64,000 bases of DNA. Source: Desulfobaccales bacterium. GTDB taxonomy: Bacteria; Desulfobacterota; Desulfobaccia; Desulfobaccales; 0-14-0-80-60-11. Below, piece after piece: positions 2,728 to 60,903 of this stretch. Numbering within the stretch: position 1 is the first letter of the stretch; the number at the start of each line of letters is the position of its first letter. The stretch lies in the NCBI GenBank assembly GCA_052147455.1, contig JBKQKO010000017.1, forward strand, positions 769-64,768, in the 5' to 3' direction. Below the pieces are notes generated by a model that saw only the letters and a list, made by a program, of their open reading frames with translations, made no database searches and was not told the DNA's origin. A program made the position numbers and the translations under genes.

Positions 2728-3178
2728 ACTCTTACCAAAACAGAAAACAGAAAACTGCCGTATAGGGCGGCCTAGGGCCGCCATAATTCGGCGGGCACAG
2801 CCCGCCCTATGAGTTCTAAAGCAAAATTTTACCTCTGGGGTGATGACGGAAAATTCATTATACGCAACGCCTTTTATTTTCGTTAATCTATCAAAATTAT
2901 GGACTAAGTATTTGGCAAACTCCCCCTCCCTGAGAGGGGAGGGGATTGGGGAGAGGGTGGCTCACTGGTCACCGCTGAGACTCCCAAGACGATACCCCCC
3001 CCACCCCGGTGTCGCCACCTCAAGAGGGACGGAATTTTGCTGTTTTGCAAGGTGCGAGGGATGCGCAATTATTTACTTCGTTATGTATAGTTAAGACTCT
3101 TACCAAAAACAGAAAACAGCCGTATAGGGCGGCCTAGGGCCGCCATAATTCGGCGGGCCCAGCCCGCCCTATGAGTTC
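2728..3178. repeat. direct repeat of about 85 bp (2728-2816 and 3096-3178) containing REP-like palindromes and a short CAGAAAA run
   Basis: ACTCTTACCAAAA...GCCGTATAGGGCGGCCTAGGGCCGCCATAATTCGGCGGGC(A/C)CAGCCCGCCCTATGAGTTC occurs twice. Confidence 0.9.
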
Positions 3179-3262
3179 GGACTGTTTTTGATTATCTCCA
3201 AACTGCTATACATTCTCCCAATGTTTCATTATTGCCTGCAAAGATCCAGGCCTTCATAATAA

Positions 3263-4411
3263 TTAATAAGTAATCGCCGCTTCCTCCGACGGCAGGCTTT
3301 CATTGGCCCGGGGGCTGTTGTCCACCGCAGTCACGTAATAGTAGTAAGTCTGTCCCGGCTTCACCCGGGAATCGACAAAATACGGCTTGGTCAAAAGCTC
3401 CGGGGTCAGGCGGCCGGGCTGGGCCTCCCCCGGGGAGCGGCGGTAGAGCCGGTAGCCCGCCAGGTCGGGGGCGGGGCTGGGCTGCCAGCGCAGCTCCACC
3501 CCCTGGGAGGTGGGTACCGCCAGCAGGCCCAACAGGGGGGGCGGCGGCGTCAGCTTCTCCGGCCTGGCGCTCTCCAGGGGGGAGTCGCCGCTGGCCAGCA
3601 GCTCGCCTCCCAGGCGCCGCACCGCCAGCACCTTGTAAGTATATTCCACCTGGTTCAGCGCCGCCACATCCTGGTAAGCGGTTTGGGGGAGGGGCTCGGG
3701 CGAGAGCTTGCTCCAGGCGCCGGAGCCTTCACGGCGATAGATGAGATAACCCGCCAGGTCTCTGGCCGGCGAACCGTTGGTGAGTTGGCTCACCGGGCTC
3801 CAGCGCAGCGCCACAATCCGATCTCCCGGGGCCGCCTGCAGGTCCAGGGGGGGCCGGGGCAGCCAGCCCCAGACGTGGTTCAAGGTGGGGGACCAGCCCC
3901 CCAGGTAGCCATCCTGGTCATAGGCCGCCACCCGATAGAAATAACGATGGTCCGGGGCCAACTCCCGGTCCGGAAAGATGCAGGCCTCCCCCCGCACCTC
4001 GCCCTGCTGGGGATAGGCCAGGTCGATGTCGGCCCGGAGGGCGAAATTCATGGGGCAGGGGGCCTCCGGCGACACCCCGCGGACCTCGCAGCGATAGACC
4101 CGGCAGCCCTGCACCTGGGTCAACGGCTGCCCCAGCAGGTTGACCCGGGGCAGCAGCCAGCTCAGGACCAGGGTGTCGCCTTCCTGGGAGAGCCGAAACT
4201 CCCGCACCGGCCCGGGCAAGAGCCGGTCCGGCGCTAAGGGCCGCAACTTCTTGCCGCAACCTCCGCAGAGAATAGTCAGGGCAATGAACCAGGATAACAG
4301 CAAATATCCGGCAGCCGCTCCGGTTTTCGGTTGGCGCTTGGCGCTTTCCGCCCTGGGCCTGGTAAAAAGTGGAGATTCCACCTCCGGGCGCCGGTCAGAT
4401 CTCTTGCTCAT
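3263..4411 (-). CDS. lipoprotein with fibronectin type III domains and an LptM-like N-terminus
   Basis: Hydrophobic stretch followed by GCGKKLRPLAP; three Fn3-like repeats (LSW/LRW, GYxxYR, YxYxVxAxD); start codon uncertain. Confidence 0.8.
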   Translation of the reverse strand: MSKRSDRRPEVESPLFTRPRAESAKRQPKTGAAAGYLLLSWFIALTILCGGCGKKLRPLAPDRLLPGPVREFRLSQEGDTLVLSWLLPRVNLLGQPLTQVQGCRVYRCEVRGVSPEAPCPMNFALRADIDLAYPQQGEVRGEACIFPDRELAPDHRYFYRVAAYDQDGYLGGWSPTLNHVWGWLPRPPLDLQAAPGDRIVALRWSPVSQLTNGSPARDLAGYLIYRREGSGAWSKLSPEPLPQTAYQDVAALNQVEYTYKVLAVRRLGGELLASGDSPLESARPEKLTPPPPLLGLLAVPTSQGVELRWQPSPAPDLAGYRLYRRSPGEAQPGRLTPELLTKPYFVDSRVKPGQTYYYYVTAVDNSPRANESLPSEEAAITY

Positions 4412-5795
4412 ACAGATTGATTCCCAATTCCGCTTCGGCCCGGGCCAGGGCCTCGGCCACCCGATCCGGGGCGGTGCCCCCGGGGGAGCGCCGCCGGGAC
4501 ACGGCGTGCTCGATGGTCAGCCACGCAAACAGCTCCTCCTGGGCCAGGGGGGCGAATTCCTGAATCTCCGCCAGGCTCAGCTCCCACAATTCCCGGCCCC
4601 GGCTCTCGGCGTAGCGCACCGTCCGGCCCACCTGGGCGTGGGCGGTGCGGAAGGGCACCCCCCGGGTGACCAGGTAATCCGCCATGTCGGTGGCGGTGAG
4701 GAAACCGCCCTTAAGGGCGGCGGCCATCCGCTCCGGCTGCACCTGCAATTCCGTGAGCAGGCCGGTCATCAGGGTCACCGCGGCCTTCACCGTGTCCACC
4801 GTGTCGAACAGGGGCTCCTTGTCCTCCTGGAGGTCCCGGTTGTAGGCCAGTGGCAGGCCCTTGACGGCCATCAGCAGGCCCATCAGGTGGCCGGCCACCC
4901 GGCCGCTCTTGCCCCGGATGAGCTCAGGCACGTCGGGGTTTTTCTTCTGGGGCATGATGGAGGAGCCGGTGGCGTAAGTGTCCGGCAGCGCCACGAAGCC
5001 GAACTCCGAGGAGGCCCAGAGGATAAGTTCCTCGGAGAGGCGGCTCAGGTGGATCATGATTATAGAGGCATGAGATAAAAATTCCAGGATAAAATCCCGG
5101 TCGCTCACCGCGTCCAGGCTGTTGCGGAAGATCTCCGGGAACCCCAGTTGGTCCGCGGTGAACTGGGGGTCAATGGGAAAGGTGGTGCCGGCCAGGGCTG
5201 CCGCCCCCAAGGGCGAAACCTGGATGCGGGCCTCCGCCTCGGTCAGCCGCCTCAGGTCCCGGCGCCACATCTCGTCGTAGGCCAGCAGATGATGGGCCAG
5301 GAGGATGGGCTGGGCCCGCTGCAGGTGGGTGTAACCCGGCAGAATCAATTTCAGGTGGCGGCGGGCCAGCCGTACCCCGGCCCGGCGCAGCTCGGTGAGG
5401 GCGGCGATCAGGGTCTCCACCTCTGCCGCCAGATAGAGGCGCAGGTCCAGGGCTACCTGGTCGTTGCGGCTCCTGGCGGTGTGGAGCTTGCCCCCCACCT
5501 CGCCTAGCTTGGCGATCAGCCGGGATTCGACGGCCATGTGGATATCTTCCTGGCCGGGGTCGAAAGGGAACTCCCCCGCCTCGATCTCGGCCGCGATCTC
5601 TTCCAGGCCCCGGACAATCTCCTCGGCCTCCGCCGGTGGGATGATCCCCTGGCGGCCCAGCATCCGGGCATGGGCTACCGAGCCGGCGATATCCTGGCGA
5701 TAAAGGCGCTTATCGAAGCTGAGAGAGCTGGTGAAGTCCTCCACGCTCTTCCCGGTCTCCCCGGCGAACCGCCCGCCCCAGGGTTTTTGCGCCAT
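4395..5795 (-). CDS. argH: argininosuccinate lyase
   Basis: [36 protein letters not shown]. Confidence 0.97.
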
Positions 5796-29024: not shown

Positions 29025-29370
29025 TGTCTTTAACCTCGAATTTGGCCCGGACGAGACAGCTGCCCGCGCGGGCCTTCATCATCTATTATACGGAAACCCT
29101 CCCCCCTCTCAGGGGGGAAGTAAAGACCCTTAATCCCTGAAGCCGGCGCCTCGCCAAGAAAAACCGGCAGGATCGGCGATCCTGCCGGCTACCGGGATCG
29201 TTCCTCAAATCTGGCGGACCCTGCCTGGAAGGGACCCGGGTGAGCGGCAACTTAATGGTAATGGCCTGTTTTCCGCCTCTGCTAAGGGGCTATTGACGTT
29301 GATTTGCCTTTCACAGGAAACAGAAAACAGATAACCGCATTTTAGCGACCCTGCGGGCCGCCCTTTAAGG

Positions 29371-30947: not shown

Positions 30948-32342
30948 CTAACTGACGATTTCTCCCAGCAGATCGTAGGGCAGGGCCCGGGTGAGCCGCA
31001 CCGCCTGGATCTCCCCGACCCGGCCCTGACCGGCGGTGAGGTACACCTGGCCATCGATTTCCGGGGCCTGGCTGATCAGACGGCCGCTGAGGAGATACTC
31101 GGACTCCGGGCTCTCCCCCTCCACCAGCACCGGCTGCACCGTGCCCACCAGGGCCTTAAGGCGCGCCTTGACGATCCCCGCCTGGAGGGCCTTCAGGATC
31201 CGGGCCCGCCGCCGAGCCAGGCGGCGGGGCACCTTTTCGGGGAGGTGGCTGGCGGCGGCGCCGTCTTCGGGACTATACAAGAAGACCCCCAGATGGTCGA
31301 AGCGCAGCTCCTCAAGGAGTTCTCTAAGGGCCTGGAAGTGGGTTTCGGTCTCTCCGGGGAAACCCACCAGCACCGTGGTGCGCAGGGTCGCCCCCGGCAG
31401 GACCTCCCGGATCAGGCGCACCAGGTCGGTAATCTGGGCCCGGGTGTAGCCCCGCCCCATGCGCCGCAAGACCTCGTCGTGGCCGTGCTGGATGGGGAGA
31501 TCCAGATAGGGGCAGATGCGGGGCTCGGCCGCCATGACTTCCAGCAATTCCCGGGTGATGCGGGTCGGATAGCCGTATAGGAGGCGGATCCAGCGGAAAT
31601 CCGGAATGGCTCCCAGCTCCCGCAGCAGCGCCGGCAGCCCGGGATGGCCCGGGAGCTCCGATCCGTAGGCGGTGGTGTCCTGAGCTACCAGGATGAGTTC
31701 TTTGACCCCGGCGGCGGCCAGTGCTCCGGCCTCCGCCACCAGGGTCTTTAGAGGGCGGCTGCGGTAGGGGCCCCGGATCCGGGGAATGACGCAAAAGCTG
31801 CAGCGGTGGCTGCAACCTTCGGCGATCTTGAGGTAGGCGAGATGTGGGGGGGTGGCGGGGTAGCGGGCCTCGGGGCCCGGGTAGGCGTAAGGCGGGGCGA
31901 GGTGGAAGAGCCGGGGGGCGTTCGCCCCCGGCCTTTGCCCCAAAATCTCTACCAGGTCAGGAAAGTCGTGGACCCCGATGAGATAATCGGCTTCCGGGAG
32001 CGCGGCGGCCAGGGCTTCCCCAAAGCGCTGCACCAGACAGCCGGCCACCACCAGGCGTTTTGAGGGATCGGCCTCTTTGTGGCGGGCCAACTCCAGGACG
32101 GTATCCACCGCCTCCTGGCAGGCGTCCTGGATAAAGGCGCAGGTGTTCACCAGCAACAACTCCGCGGCATCCGGGGCCGCGGCGACCTGCCAGCCGCCCT
32201 GGGTAAGGCGGCCCAACATGATCTCCGTGTCCACCAGGTTCTTGGCGCAGCCCAGGGAGACGGCGTAGACTGCAGGACGGTTTTCGGGTTGTGGTTTTCG
32301 GTTTTCGGTGTTCAGGACGTCTAACCCCTGCTCACTGCTCAC
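30948..32342 (-). CDS. rimO: ribosomal protein S12 methylthiotransferase
   Basis: SLGCAKNLVDTE, CSHRCSFC, APEIDG and TRAM domain; exact start uncertain. Confidence 0.93.
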   Translation of the reverse strand: MSSEQGLDVLNTENRKPQPENRPAVYAVSLGCAKNLVDTEIMLGRLTQGGWQVAAAPDAAELLLVNTCAFIQDACQEAVDTVLELARHKEADPSKRLVVAGCLVQRFGEALAAALPEADYLIGVHDFPDLVEILGQRPGANAPRLFHLAPPYAYPGPEARYPATPPHLAYLKIAEGCSHRCSFCVIPRIRGPYRSRPLKTLVAEAGALAAAGVKELILVAQDTTAYGSELPGHPGLPALLRELGAIPDFRWIRLLYGYPTRITRELLEVMAAEPRICPYLDLPIQHGHDEVLRRMGRGYTRAQITDLVRLIREVLPGATLRTTVLVGFPGETETHFQALRELLEELRFDHLGVFLYSPEDGAAASHLPEKVPRRLARRRARILKALQAGIVKARLKALVGTVQPVLVEGESPESEYLLSGRLISQAPEIDGQVYLTAGQGRVGEIQAVRLTRALPYDLLGEIVS

Positions 32343-54187: not shown

Positions 54188-54205
54188 CCGGAAGGTTTGC
54201 AGTTT

Positions 54206-54292
54206 TCAGTTTTCGGTAAAGCCATCAGCTATCGGAGTGACTGTGAAGAAGAACGCGCCGCCAGGAACAAGGGCGCGCATATATTGCGGCAT
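54206..54292 (-). pseudogene. N-terminal remnant of a second REP-associated tyrosine transposase
   Basis: Translates as MPQYMRALVPGGAFFFTVT..., the typical RAYT start; directly follows a GTAG-type REP at 54318-54351. Confidence 0.75.
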
Positions 54293-56493: not shown

Positions 56494-57747
56494 TTACCCC
56501 ACATCTGCCATCTCTTTCAAGGTAATTCGGGCATCGATGCCCAGGTTTTCCTGGAGGTGGCGCCGCGCCCGGCGGCACAGACCCTCCAAGGCCTTGATCT
56601 CATCGGAAAAAAAGATCTCCGCCACGCTCAGGTCGATTTCCAGGACCTCCAGCCCCTCCTCCGCCACCACCCGGCGGCGGTACTGGGGCAGAAAGCCCTC
56701 CATGACCTCTTGGAGGAGCGCCTCGATCTGGTCGGGGTGCACCTTGATGCCGCCCACCGAAAAGATGGGGTCGGTGCGCCCGGTGATCTCCCCCAGGCGC
56801 ACCAGGCTGCGGCCACAGGGGCAGGGGCCGGGGAGCAGCGAAGTCAAGTCGCCGCTGCGAAAGCGCACCAGGGGAAAGGCCACGGTGCTCAGGGTGGTGA
56901 TCACCAACTCGCCGGGAGCGCCGGCGGGAACCGGGACGCGGCTCTCCGGGTCGATGATCTCCGGGTAGAAGTGGTCCTCGGAGAAGTGGAGACCCTCCCC
57001 CTGGCCGCAACTAAAGGCCAGTCCCGGTCCCATCACTTCGGTGATGCCGTAAGCAGTGGCCACCCGGATCTGAAAGCCGGCCTCTATTTCCTGGCGCACC
57101 TCCCGGGCCAGGGGCGCGGCCACCAGCAGGGCGGCCCCCAGGCTCAATTCCGCGGCGGTGAGGTCCATGCGCTCCATCACCGTCAGCAGGTGCCGAGCCA
57201 GGGAGGGGGTGGTGACCAGGATCGAGGTCTTGTAATCCCGCATCACCATGAGCTGCTTGGCAAAGCTGAGGCTGGCCGCGGGGATCACCGAGGCCCCCAG
57301 GTGCTCCGCCCCGGCCTGCAGGTCCCGGCGCCAGTTGGCCAGACCCGGTGGCAGGACTATTTGCAAGATATCCTCTGGCGTCACCCCGCAGGCGGCGTAC
57401 AGGCGAGCCAGGAGCTCCAGCCAGAGTTTCACGTCCTGGGAGGCGTAGCCCACCACCAGGGGCCGCTGCGAAGTGCCGGGGGAGGACTGGATGCGGACGA
57501 TGTCCCGCAAGGGCACGGCGAACATGCCGTAAGGATAATTCTCCGAAAGGTCGTCCCGGGTGGTGACCGGCAGGCGGCTCAAGTCGGCGGGACTGCGAAC
57601 GGCCTCGGGGCGCACTCCCAGGCGGTCGAACTGGTGGCGGTAGAATTCTACCTGTCGGTAAGCCCGGGTCAAAGTGGACTGGAGCCGCTCCAACTGCAGC
57701 AGTTCCAGCTCTTCCCGGTCCATGGCCTCGAATTCCGGCTGGCGCAT
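56494..57747 (-). CDS. phenylacetate-CoA ligase family protein
   Basis: YPYGMFAVP, YGITEVMGPG, EDHFYPEIIDP, GELVITTL; the SSGTTG loop is degenerate (SSPGTSQ). Confidence 0.88.
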   Translation of the reverse strand: MRQPEFEAMDREELELLQLERLQSTLTRAYRQVEFYRHQFDRLGVRPEAVRSPADLSRLPVTTRDDLSENYPYGMFAVPLRDIVRIQSSPGTSQRPLVVGYASQDVKLWLELLARLYAACGVTPEDILQIVLPPGLANWRRDLQAGAEHLGASVIPAASLSFAKQLMVMRDYKTSILVTTPSLARHLLTVMERMDLTAAELSLGAALLVAAPLAREVRQEIEAGFQIRVATAYGITEVMGPGLAFSCGQGEGLHFSEDHFYPEIIDPESRVPVPAGAPGELVITTLSTVAFPLVRFRSGDLTSLLPGPCPCGRSLVRLGEITGRTDPIFSVGGIKVHPDQIEALLQEVMEGFLPQYRRRVVAEEGLEVLEIDLSVAEIFFSDEIKALEGLCRRARRHLQENLGIDARITLKEMADVG

Positions 57748-57754
57748 GTTTCCT

Positions 57755-57905
57755 CCAGTAGCCAGTAGTCAGTAGTCAGTAGCCAGTAGCCAGTAAAAAA
57801 CCCCACCTATTTTTTCATCGAAGCTAGAAGTCCATTTAAAATGCGTCCTACTTCCGAAGCCATCTCAAGTTTCCAGTAGCCAGTAGTCAGTAGCCAGTAG
57901 CCAGT
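57755..57905. repeat. two AG(C/T)CAGT heptamer arrays (57755-57794, 57873-57905) separated by a duplicated gene 3' end
   Basis: About 6 and 5 units; 57807-57870 copies 57918-57981 with two substitutions. Confidence 0.95.
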
Positions 57906-57917
57906 AAAAAACCCCAC

Positions 57918-58274
57918 CTATTTTTTCATCGAAGCTATAAGCCCATTTAAAATGCGTCCTACTTCCGAAGCCATCTCAAGTAATACTGTAGCCTCTGGTT
58001 CATCCAAATATTCAAGATTCTTGGCTATCATAATTTGGGTTTCCAGTTCTGATAATGATCCTCTGGCATTTCCCAAAAATACTCGAAATTCTCCCCGGGA
58101 TAAACGTCCCTGGCCTTCAGCAATATTACTGGGAATAGAAACCGCGGCTCGACGGAGCTGGCTGGTGAGACCAAACATCTCTTCCTTAGGCAATTTTTTG
58201 GTCAGGCGATAAATCTCCGTTACCAAATCCATAGCCTTTTGCCAGCCGATCAAATCCATATAATATCTTGTCAT
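57918..58274 (-). CDS. four-helix-bundle protein (23S rRNA IVS / bAvd-like family)
   Basis: YMDLIGWQKA, LPKEEMFGLTSQLRRAAVSIPSNIAEG, ARGSLSELETQ. Confidence 0.95.
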   Translation of the reverse strand: MTRYYMDLIGWQKAMDLVTEIYRLTKKLPKEEMFGLTSQLRRAAVSIPSNIAEGQGRLSRGEFRVFLGNARGSLSELETQIMIAKNLEYLDEPEATVLLEMASEVGRILNGLIASMKK

Positions 58275-58313
58275 AGTCTAACTTCTCTTAGTGTCTGCCT
58301 ATTATCAAAAAAA

Positions 58314-58362
58314 ACTGACTACTGGCTACTGACTACTGACTACTGGCTACTGCCTACTGACT
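58314..58362. repeat. seven ACTG(A/G/C)CT heptamers, inverted relative to 57755-57905
   Basis: Seven units counted directly; begins 2 nt after the livF stop on the minus strand. Confidence 0.95.
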
Positions 58363-58364
58363 TC

Positions 58365-59105
<741 letters not shown>

Positions 59106-59147
59106 GCCCGTTTTCCGTTTTCAGTTTTCCGTTTTCCGTCAAATTTG

Positions 59148-59417
59148 CTCCCCTTGGTAGTTCCGTTCTCGCAGCCTGTGTTGTTTTTCTCTAATAATCA
59201 TATCAAGAAAGCGCAGGCTAAAGCCTGCGGCTACAATTTAAAGGCCAGGATCAATTTTGTCCTGCACAGGCGAGACGCCTGTGCCACCAGGTCCTTTTAC
59301 AAAAAACGGTAAACGGAAAACGGTAAACGGCTCTTTACGTCTGCCAATCCGTCCCCAGATAGGCGGCGATCACCTCCGGATTCTTCTGAATGGCCCGGGG
59401 CGGGCCCTCGGCGATGA
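59148..59417. repeat. direct duplicate of 59889-60200 (livG 3' end, heptamers, two REPs and the RAYT 5' end)
   Basis: Identical except for three substitutions and 4 versus 10 AAACGG(T/A) units. Confidence 0.95.
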
Positions 59418-59425
59418 TTTTTTCT

Positions 59426-59975
59426 GTAGCCGCAGGCTTTAGCCTGCGCTTATCACTTAAACCATGGCCTGGAGGATATAGTCTAATTCGCAGCTCATGG
59501 CCCCTTTAAAGGGGTACTTCTGCCAGTTAGCAACCAAACCTTTTCTCACCGGATTATCAAGAATATACCTGGCAATGTTGACCAGACCTTCATCTTTTCT
59601 AATAATATGGTCAAAAAAATCTTTCTGCCAACTTGCACTGCTTAGATTCTGTGATAGCCAATAACCAGTTTTTTGTTTATATGCTTTAATAAAATCTAAG
59701 ACCCCCGAGTTGGAATCAGTCCCTGTAACAATTAAATGTTGATGGTCCGGCATAAAATAATAAACTGGAATAATACAAGAAGACTCTTCTACTTGGGATT
59801 TTAGAATATTTATAAAAACAGTAACCGCATAAATACTTTTAAATAATTGGACCCTGTCTGTGATACAGAGCGTAAAAGAAACAGAAACCTCCCCTTGGTA
59901 GTTCCGTTCTCGTAGCCTGTGTTGTTTTTCTCTAATAATCATATCAAGAAAGCGCAGGCTAAAGCCTGCGGCTAC
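59426..59975 (-). mobile_element. RAYT locus: transposase flanked by inverted REPs (59426-59449, 59952-59975)
   Basis: GTAGCCGCAGGCTTTAGCCTGCGC and its exact reverse complement; a dispersed copy lies at 9228-9247. Confidence 0.88.
59457..59942 (-). CDS. REP-associated tyrosine (HUH, Y1) transposase
   Basis: MPDHQHLI (HUH), WQKDFFDHIIR, YILDNPVRKGL; AT-rich. Confidence 0.92.
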   Translation of the reverse strand: MIIREKQHRLRERNYQGEVSVSFTLCITDRVQLFKSIYAVTVFINILKSQVEESSCIIPVYYFMPDHQHLIVTGTDSNSGVLDFIKAYKQKTGYWLSQNLSSASWQKDFFDHIIRKDEGLVNIARYILDNPVRKGLVANWQKYPFKGAMSCELDYILQAMV

Positions 59976-60044
59976 AATTTAAAGGGCAGGATCAATTTTG
60001 TCCTGCACAGGCGAGACGCCTGTGCCACCAGGTCCTTTTACAAA

Positions 60045-60114
60045 AAACGGTAAACGGAAAACGGTAAACGGTAAACGGAAAACGGTAAACGGTAAACGGT
60101 AAACGGTAAACGGT
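60045..60114. repeat. ten AAACGG(T/A) heptamers; inverted partner array at 59108-59139
   Basis: Counted directly; the partner reads CCGTTTT CCGTTTT CAGTTTT CCGTTTT CCGT. Confidence 0.95.
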
Positions 60115-60117
60115 TCT

Positions 60118-60903
<786 letters not shown>

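Follow-up and report, generated by a model that had tools for sequence, protein, structure and literature searches.

What is a gene of the 23S_rRNA_IVP family (PF05635) doing between two genes of a protein-coding operon, enclosed on both sides by tandem heptamers in inverted orientation? The question is raised by the junction of a livF-like and a paaK-like gene in a 64,000-nt stretch of a Desulfobaccales genome (GCA_052147455.1, contig JBKQKO010000017.1, positions 769 to 64,768), hereafter the window. An earlier note on this DNA had proposed a repeat-delimited cassette, an mRNA analogue of a ribosomal intervening sequence, and our analysis supports the proposal: the flanks of homologous genes are enriched in such arrays, and relatives have empty junctions. 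We consider it probable that the livF-paaK cassette is a selfish unit of the intervening-sequence type in an mRNA operon, with the PF05635 gene in the loop and the heptamer arms as the stem. The anatomy of the unit, its insertion, the generality of gene plus arrays, the covariation of the arms and the like build of true 23S intervening sequences are the solid part of this reading.

The genes of the region, all on the minus strand, are two permeases, the livG-like and livF-like genes, a 118-aa open reading frame (ORF), the paaK-like gene and a periplasmic binding protein (Table 1). After the livF stop, the coding strand reads GA and then AGTCAGT AGGCAGT AGCCAGT AGTCAGT AGTCAGT AGCCAGT AGTCAGT, and both the letters and Tandem Repeats Finder (TRF; 7.0 copies) agree with the earlier description of seven AGNCAGT units beginning 2 nt past that stop. 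The complementary arrays said to follow the gene are two in number, and the outermost ACTG(G/A)CT unit overlaps the ribosome-binding site (RBS) of the paaK-like gene (GGAGGA, 57751-57756), just before its ATG. There are two of them because 111 bp, comprising the last ~70 nt of the cargo gene, its stop and the 3' array, were tandemly duplicated, a secondary event. The arms measure 33-40 nt and are 93-97% complementary, as the proposed duplex of about 33-40 bp demands, and the predicted fold of the transcript pairs the 5' arm with both 3' arrays (minimum free energy -214.8 kcal/mol, z -5.1 against 20 shuffles). The ORF is indeed AT-richer than its surroundings, the GC content being 0.42-0.43 within the cassette and 0.65-0.72 in the flanks. 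Across the 64 kb, period-7 arrays with a TRF score of at least 57 occur solely in this cassette and in an insert at the neighbouring livG-livF junction; this restriction, together with the recurrence of arrays around homologues elsewhere, discounts chance as their source.

The 118-aa protein belongs to the four-helix-bundle family defined by PF05635 (E 4.5e-40, 136.6 bits, cut-off 33.8) and TIGR02436 ("four helix bundle protein", 131.4 bits, cut-off 24), with scores above the curated cut-offs, and NF008911 gave 142 bits. Its relatives in the PDB, 2GSC (E 1e-24) and 2RLD, were both deposited with five chains, and the solved structure of the family is a toroidal homopentamer (PMC4990558). PF05635 was the only family match of an ORF in the ~620-bp cassette, and no recombinase was found in the unit.

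To follow the history of the junction, the paaK-like orthologue was located in 30 related genomes, and the livF-paaK junction was read at the 19 loci that carry both genes. Empty junctions, for which the earlier note had suggested looking, exist: nine of the 19 measure 4-9 nt, with 9 nt in G013, which is of the genus of the window's genome, and 4-7 nt in all 8 genomes of other genera. Two more hold short other content without arrays (67 nt in G008, the closest relative by paaK identity, and 142 nt in G003). The gene and both arrays fill the remaining eight, with a gap of 476-891 nt, in G000 (the window's genome), G007, G010, G009, G014, G012, G004 and G011, all of one genus. The difference between a filled and an empty site is exactly the arrays plus the gene (...GGTGAG / AAGTCAGT...CTACTG / GAGGAA... 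vs ...GGTGAGGAGGAA...), the limits of the insert being the limits of the arrays. Judged from this alignment, the livF-paaK unit is an insertion. Comparison of the filled site with a relative's empty one gave no clear target-site duplication, at most 1 nt (G) being ambiguous; with PF05635 as the sole family match, the earlier observation that neither a transposase nor a target-site duplication is evident holds. Sporadic presence with uninterrupted sites in relatives is also a trait of the IVP-bearing intervening sequences of rRNA.

The unit is not static. One DNA contig of the peat metagenome run X5 joins 57746 to 58367 and omits the whole cassette, and another X5 DNA contig jumps from 57762 to 57888; therefore a form without the 111-bp duplication exists. 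In G007 the 3' part of the gene plus the array, a longer 3' segment, stands in three tandem copies, from which we conclude that the arrays drive slippage, and the sequence and length of the arms vary among the eight orthologous cassettes. Five of these eight carry an intact gene, and three have stops or a frameshift yet keep their arrays intact; recoding of the stops was dropped as an explanation, given that they mix TGA and TAA. We suggest that an ancestor of some members of the Desulfobacca-like genus would have received the unit, past the livF-like stop and ahead of the paaK-like RBS, and that the unit would since have been inherited, lost or replaced, and reshaped by array slippage.

Several known kinds of element were considered and rejected. 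An insertion sequence or transposon does not fit a unit that has no transposase and no target-site duplication beyond the ambiguous nucleotide. An integron cassette was set aside on finding tandem heptamers on both sides and no attC-like single site, a judgement made without an integrase search, and an ordinary terminator was dropped after the terminator scan found none. Avd, the pentameric nucleic-acid-binding partner of the reverse transcriptase in diversity-generating retroelements, shares the four-helix-bundle fold with the cargo protein. However, the 118-aa protein scored below the cut-offs of both Avd profiles (PF22296, 35 vs 40 bits; NF033474, 35.7 vs 80 bits), the neighbours are transport and ligase genes, and, unlike in Avd systems, no reverse transcriptase or template/variable repeat adjoins the gene.

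The association of gene and arrays was then assessed in two samples of homologues. Sample A comprised the 80 closest homologue loci in species-representative genomes (56-97% identical to the window protein; not a random sample), mostly from Acidobacteriota, with records that also name Planctomycetota, Lentisphaeria, Puniceicoccaceae, Nevskia soli and Heliomicrobium. Sample B comprised 80 homologue loci of a paralogue on contig C85 of the window's genome, from a dozen or more phylum-level groups by record title (Bacteroidota, Planctomycetota, Chloroflexota, cyanobacteria, Armatimonadota, Omnitrophota, Nitrospirales, Leptonemataceae, Brocadia, Entotheonella and others). The near zone was defined as the 200 nt on either side of the gene (400 nt per locus), and the far zone covered up to 2,600 nt per locus. 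An array lay within 200 nt of the gene at 146 of the 160 homologues and on both sides at 97. Sample A had an array on at least one side at 77/80 loci, on both sides at 55/80 and inside the gene at none, with 145 arrays near and 47 far; the corresponding values for sample B were 69/80 and 42/80, with 115 near and 50 far. The density of arrays next to the gene is thus 15- to 20-fold above that of the rest of the same loci. When sample A was grouped by shared neighbours, 39 genomic contexts were obtained, of which 38 had arrays and 32 had them on both sides. The enrichment of homologue flanks in inverted period-7 arrays with covarying units, for which the earlier note had proposed a test, was therefore found in both samples.

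Overall, the units have the form NNNN-AGT upstream and ACT-NNNN, its reverse complement, downstream. The upstream unit of sample A is NNN-CAGT, with the core exact in 94 of 132 arrays and the rest one position off, except 2; that of sample B is NNN-(T/G/C)AGT, with TAGT in 53, GAGT in 31 and CAGT in 17 of 111. Where sample A has both arms (55 loci), the two consensus units are identical in 24 cases and differ at one position in 23, and the stems have a median length of 28 bp and reach at least 20 bp in 51/55. The arrays vary little in length (median 4.6 units, interquartile range 4.3-4.95, n = 243 arrays). On a protein tree of 75 of the 80 sample-A proteins, five with in-frame stops being left out, the variable triplet of the unit required 23 changes, vs 49-54 in the ten shuffles listed, and a single variable triplet was seen in up to 11 different contexts. 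Since the triplet tracks the protein tree and recurs across contexts, gene and arms travel together. Polarity was uniform, with an AGT-type 5' arm and an ACT-type 3' arm at 47 loci of sample A and 44 of sample B (91) and none reversed; this layout is identical on both strands and is therefore uninformative as to the strand that counts. A crude open-frame call gave 82 loci at which the gene runs in the direction of both neighbours and 17 at which it is opposed to both.

The link to ribosomal intervening sequences was provided by a complete genome (G050) in a 151-genome sample of the phylum. It has two identical PF05635 matches, one in each of its rRNA operons, which share 6.4 kb at 99.8% identity. 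Rfam placed the gene inside both 23S copies, where the large-subunit match spans 3,466 nt for a model of 2,925 positions. The insert sits ~1,265 nt into the 23S gene and is made up of an ACTAGAG-type array, then the gene, then an NTCTAGT-type array; from the flanking rRNA sequence, we take the insertion point to be the helix-45 site. With the G050 protein as query, 25 relative loci were obtained, at 12 of which 23S sequence flanks the gene on either side, and a thirteenth (L227) adjoins 23S sequence. The records of 23S-borne loci name Gamma-, Beta- and Alphaproteobacteria, Desulfotignum, a Bacteroidota genus, Dehalococcoidia, Actinomycetes and Planctomycetaceae. The 10 rRNA elements examined all have a stem, of 21-38 bp. 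Thus, the classical 23S rRNA intervening sequence with a PF05635 ORF is itself built on inverted heptamer arrays.

This build agrees with what has been published on rRNA elements. The helix-45 intervening sequence described in PMC4990558 has a 28-bp terminal stem, in the middle of which RNase III cleavage was mapped by rapid amplification of cDNA ends, at the start of tandem heptameric repeats; these number 2-3 units, differing between strains, and the ORF is decaying and probably untranslated. In rRNA intervening sequences, RNase III cleavage is not followed by ligation, and their spread is horizontal (PMC11270868, introduction). The IVP-bearing 23S elements and the cassette share a family ORF in the loop, an inverted-repeat stem of ~28-40 bp, heptameric arm repeats that vary in number, sporadic distribution and ORF decay. 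The livF-paaK cassette encloses its family ORF in inverted repeats whose 39-40 nt arms (93-97% complementary) exceed a stem of ~20 bp, and its arm repeats vary (7.0, 4.9 and 5.9 copies). It differs in location: the 23S elements occupy an rRNA helix (25 or 45), whereas the host of the cassette is the stop/RBS junction of an mRNA operon. No 23S match was found at the 160 loci of samples A and B. The 23S genes of G009, G010, G008, G004 and G021, ~3,010 nt long, contain no insert, and the G000 assembly holds no 23S gene; therefore the genus offers no rRNA copy for direct comparison. Two side observations concern G050 (C1:553000-562000, locus positions 2883-3353 and 4739-5203). There, heptamer arrays also border the two spacer tRNAs and lie ahead of the 23S 5' end, and some short hairpins in the rRNA region pair only via G-U.

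RNase III excision is published for 23S intervening sequences, whereas for the livF-paaK cassette we infer it, along with transcription through the unit and pairing of its arms in vivo. In the proposed mechanism, the operon promoter would read through the cassette, the transcribed 3' arm would pair with the 5' arm into a duplex of 33-40 bp, and RNase III would cut this duplex and release the cassette RNA, splitting the message between its livF and paaK parts with little harm to either. Such a nearly harmless split would account for the acceptance of these insertions at stop/RBS junctions, between tRNAs and within rRNA helices. We judge that the arms pair and are cut because the cassette shares traits with RNase III-substrate elements, the predicted fold fits this, as the earlier note had expected of the folded transcript, and G000 has an RNase III gene (226.7 bits, cut-off 166).

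Several observations weigh against this mechanism. Among 55 stems, mismatches read on the sense strand were G-U in 40 cases and A-C in 55, with no excess of G-U, and in 10 rRNA stems the counts were 13 and 8, so selection for pairing as sense RNA is unsupported; the wobble test neither supports nor excludes such selection, since the arms may undergo homogenisation as DNA. Public runs were examined as assembled contigs, and the RNA runs contained 4-8% of the sampled words. RNA-library coverage amounted to one 151-nt contig from the gene interior at ~95% identity, possibly DNA carry-over, and contigs end at the arrays, as expected of any assembler. The A-G/C-T core is conserved across phyla and is unneeded for a plain RNase III stem; the conserved core, fixed polarity and narrow length of 4-5 units suggest that a protein recognises the arrays, and the pentameric cargo protein may be the one. 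Finally, the rRNA elements have the reversed polarity, ACT-type at 5' and AGT-type at 3', in 8 of 9 typed pairs, and on this ground the rRNA and non-rRNA classes may work non-identically.

These points bear on three rival explanations. In the first, which we regard as unlikely, the arrays act as DNA, that is, as terminal inverted repeats or single-strand hairpin arms read by a recombinase or by the cargo protein, and the RNA stem is a by-product. In its favour are the clean empty sites and array-bounded insert limits described above, the core kept across phyla, a polarity fixed at 91/91 typed non-rRNA loci and a sense strand without G-U excess. Gene and unit are also co-inherited over at least 39 contexts, with one triplet in up to 11, and the non-complementary, chimeric arms at the livG-livF junctions of G007 and G009 suggest cassette turnover at the DNA level. 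However, the 620-bp unit has neither a recombinase nor a target-site duplication, its cargo is a 118-aa helical bundle without a known catalytic motif, and 3 of the 8 orthologous genes are broken while their arrays are intact. Moreover, no near-identical copies at different sites of one genome were noticed, save in the rRNA operons of G050.

The second rival, in our view rather improbable, makes the cargo protein a heptamer-array-binding factor that acts in trans, with its gene lying between its own sites in an autoregulated or "global regulator" arrangement. Co-occurrence was scanned with the pattern AGT-N4 x5 and the gene family in the 151 genomes of the phylum; a backward-pattern control (TGA, period 7) was left unused because it is confounded, units like ACTGACT containing TGA. 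Both were present in 61 genomes, arrays only in 5, the gene only in 29 and neither in 56, giving an odds ratio of 23.6 and a Spearman coefficient of 0.66, values that are overstated because related genomes are not independent. The gene was present in 31 of the 32 genomes with at least 10 array matches, and G000 has 158 period-7 TRF rows with just 3 copies of the gene. The peak of array length at 4.3-4.95 units would also suit a protein whose relatives were deposited as 5 chains and form a toroidal homopentamer (PMC4990558), and an unidentified repeat-binding protein has been proposed for other bacteria (PMC4679880, PMC2700814). On the other side, cassette-borne arrays would by themselves produce the co-occurrence, genes decay while arrays persist, and the protein of the published rRNA case is probably untranslated (PMC4990558). 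In addition, G151 (96% complete) has 58 array matches and no match to PF05635, TIGR02436 or PF22296; arrays can thus persist, or arise, without a detectable gene copy. A broader idea, which we offer as speculation and regard as improbable, would join PF05635 proteins and heptamer arrays in one system: the pentamer would read about five NNNN-A(G/C)T units, one per subunit, on the arms of its own cassette, and cassettes would seed arrays of the kinds known from cyanobacteria and Beggiatoaceae, to be reused as RNA processing stems, terminators and spacers near tRNAs, rRNA domains, phage genes and operon junctions, with rRNA as the best-known landing site of a far larger family of mobile "stem cassettes".

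That the arrays are ordinary intergenic simple-sequence repeats of the lineage and the gene a chance passenger is highly improbable: G000 is rich in period-7 arrays of several families, most of them away from PF05635 genes, and inverted arrays enclose other cargo too (a REP-associated tyrosine transposase, an Mrr_N ORF and two family-less ORFs), but arrays are 15- to 20-fold denser next to the gene in two independent samples, the two arms agree in their units and follow the protein tree, the relatives' empty junctions lack any arrays, and all three G000 copies are array-flanked, one with a degenerate 5' arm.

The intervening-sequence reading of the cassette also meets an older literature on heptamer repeats. 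Cyanobacteria carry short tandemly repeated repetitive (STRR) sequences with the units CCCCAGT and CAACAGT. The units of the cassette and of G000 presumably resemble these, and G000, with 158 period-7 rows, has the many tandem intergenic 7-mers per genome that mark STRR-like repeats. TAACTGA repeats are reported from Beggiatoaceae, cyanobacteria and Bacteroidetes (PMC4679880), and long heptanucleotide simple-sequence repeats by Mrazek 2007 (as cited in PMC4679880). Like the cassette arms, STRR and TAACTGA-type arrays are intergenic tandem 7-mers, often directly upstream of start codons, and their units fit the NNNN-AGT / ACT-NNNN form (TAACTGA contains ACTGATA). They differ in being direct repeats, with one inverted case in PMC4679880, and the accessible parts of these reports make no tie to PF05635 or to gene-bracketing pairs. 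In Geobacter metallireducens, paired tandem 7-9-mers on opposite strands are annotated as "global regulator binding sites" (PMC2700814). They resemble the cassette arms in that each partner of a pair has 3-5 tandem units, the distance between partners varies and some pairs lie within operons (between proB and proA), and are interpreted as protein-binding sites, unlike in our reading of the cassette. It has also been speculated in print that a protein binding the repeats could be the mobile element. As a guess only, arrays adjoining PF05635 genes may contribute to the repeat-association scores of PMC10910872.

The livF-paaK cassette is one member of a large class that is undescribed as far as could be searched, in which inverted NNNN-AGT / ACT-NNNN arrays enclose a PF05635 gene, be it within 23S rRNA or at operon sites of many phyla. 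The openly accessible literature, to which the search was confined to the exclusion of subscription journals and supplements, contained no paper linking PF05635 genes generally to inverted heptamer arrays and no description of such cassettes in mRNA operons, the nearest being PMC4990558, on one rRNA element. Two old puzzles, the role of the 23S_rRNA_IVP / S23p protein and why some genomes are full of heptamer arrays, would become one testable question. If operon-borne cassettes leave mRNA as intervening sequences leave rRNA, a widespread class of selfish inserts would split polycistronic messages at defined points, which would bear on operon annotation, mRNA stability and the settlement of foreign genes in essential operons. 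The gene plus inverted NNNN-AGT / ACT-NNNN arrays of ~4-5 units provides a signature for finding cassettes and their remnants.

The features of the cassette and of its surroundings are collected in Table 1. The promoter-like match in the 5' arm came from a consensus scan that returned 4 sites, against 0.7 expected in shuffles.

Table 1 Features of the livF-paaK cassette and its neighbourhood in the window
Feature	Coordinates	Strand	Remarks
5' arm, seven AG(T/G/C)CAGT heptamers	58314..58362	(-)	TRF 7.0 copies, score 77
Cargo gene, 118-aa four-helix-bundle protein, 23S_rRNA_IVP family	57918..58274	(-)	PF05635 / TIGR02436
Inner 3' arm, ACTG(G/A)CT, 4.9 copies	57873..57906	(-)	TRF; 33 nt 97% complementary to 5' arm
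Outer 3' arm, ACTG(G/A)CT, 5.9 copies	57755..57795	(-)	TRF; complementary to 5' arm over 39 nt (97%) and 40 nt (93%)
Two tandem 111-bp copies	57753-57863 and 57864-57974	(-)	TRF period 111, 2.0 copies, 97% matches; repeat search 95% identity
Putative promoter-like match, TAGCCA-16 nt-GATAAT	58301..58328	(-)	Overlaps the 5' arm at its end and the T-run that follows; consensus scan
livG-like ATPase	60903..60118	(-)	
livF-like ABC ATPase	59105..58365	(-)	Upstream neighbour; stop codon 58365-58367
paaK-like AMP-binding / AMP-binding_C_2 protein	57747..56494	(-)	Downstream neighbour; ATG 57745-57747
REP-associated tyrosine transposase gene	59942..59457	(-)	NF047646 80.5 bits vs cut-off 80
Perfect 27-nt inverted REP hairpins	59425-59451 / 59950-59976		Around the transposase gene
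ACCGTTT arrays	60045-60114 and 59304-59330		x10 (upstream) and x3.9
Inverted GGAAAAC array	59108-59139		x4.6; downstream

A second array-bracketed insert occupies the junction between the livG-like and livF-like genes (59108-60114, minus strand). Its cargo is a transposase gene associated with repetitive extragenic palindromes (REP), and a ~270-bp duplication takes in the final ~90 nt of livG as well as the first 54 nt of that gene. The same junction holds a diverged PF05635 gene between CCCAGTT / AACTGGG arrays in G008 and G013, a PF05635 pseudogene between AGYCAGT / ACTGRCT arrays in G018, a transposase in G004 and chimeric remnants with non-matching left and right arrays in G007 and G009; it is nearly empty in G014 (52 nt) and G029 (29 nt). 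Operon junctions in this lineage are turnover sites for array-bracketed cassettes. REP elements, bacterial interspersed mosaic elements (BIMEs) and REP-associated tyrosine transposases likewise involve intergenic palindromic repeats within operons, whereas the arms of the livF-paaK cassette are tandem heptamers and not single REP hairpins, and that cassette, unlike REP systems, has no Y1 transposase. None of the seven other Y1-transposase matches of G000, checked by eye against the array list, was array-bracketed like the window copy.

G000 itself (3.30 Mb, 58.7% GC) gave 805 TRF rows with a score of at least 40, of which the 158 period-7 rows fall into the unit families ACTGGCT/ACTACTG, AAAACGG, AAAACCG, AAACTCG and others. 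Its arrays are often paired in inverted orientation with gaps of 15-50, 85-200, 385-520 or ~715 nt; the number of inverted pairs, ~30, was read by eye off the list and not counted by script. Besides the window copy, PF05635 genes lie on C85, between AGTTTCG / AAACTCA arms complementary at 25/26 positions, and on C66, where a pseudogene has a degenerate 5' arm and four AAAGCTG units at 3'. A short-loop inverted pair on C62 encloses a truncated remnant of a PF05635-type gene. Strong inverted arrays at C8:1086-1542, C52:10893-11331 and C113:3320-4124 enclose ORFs of 95 and 228 aa without a Pfam match and a 94-aa ORF with an Mrr_N domain, and a REP doublet is a further kind of cargo; units with cargo other than PF05635 may be further cassette families.

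Other arrays of G000 are recorded here as minor observations. At C15:5458-6132 the spacer that separates tRNA-Ser(tga) from tRNA-Ser(gct) is taken up by two heptamer arrays in inverted orientation, and another array stands past the second tRNA. In a prophage-like region (C123:14800-31600, with a 247-aa capsid-like ORF), arrays, often inverted CAGTAGY pairs, stand between many ORFs. At C127:22036-22139 stand 14.9 tandem copies of AAACCCT, which on the opposite strand matches the plant-type telomere repeat TTTAGGG; they may be one more heptamer array or mark a contaminant contig. Shorter period-7 arrays in the window are CGGTTTT x5.1 (32278-32313), AAAACAG x2.7 (2737-2755), ACAGAAA x3.3 (29313-29335) and GTTTTCA x2.9 (54195-54214). 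Finally, the GC-rich palindrome GGGGCGACCCGCTGGGTCGCCC lies within the arrays of two unrelated cassettes, that on C66 (locus position ~1840-1865) and the 5' arm of the livF-paaK cassette of G010, and may be a tiny mobile hairpin that targets arrays.

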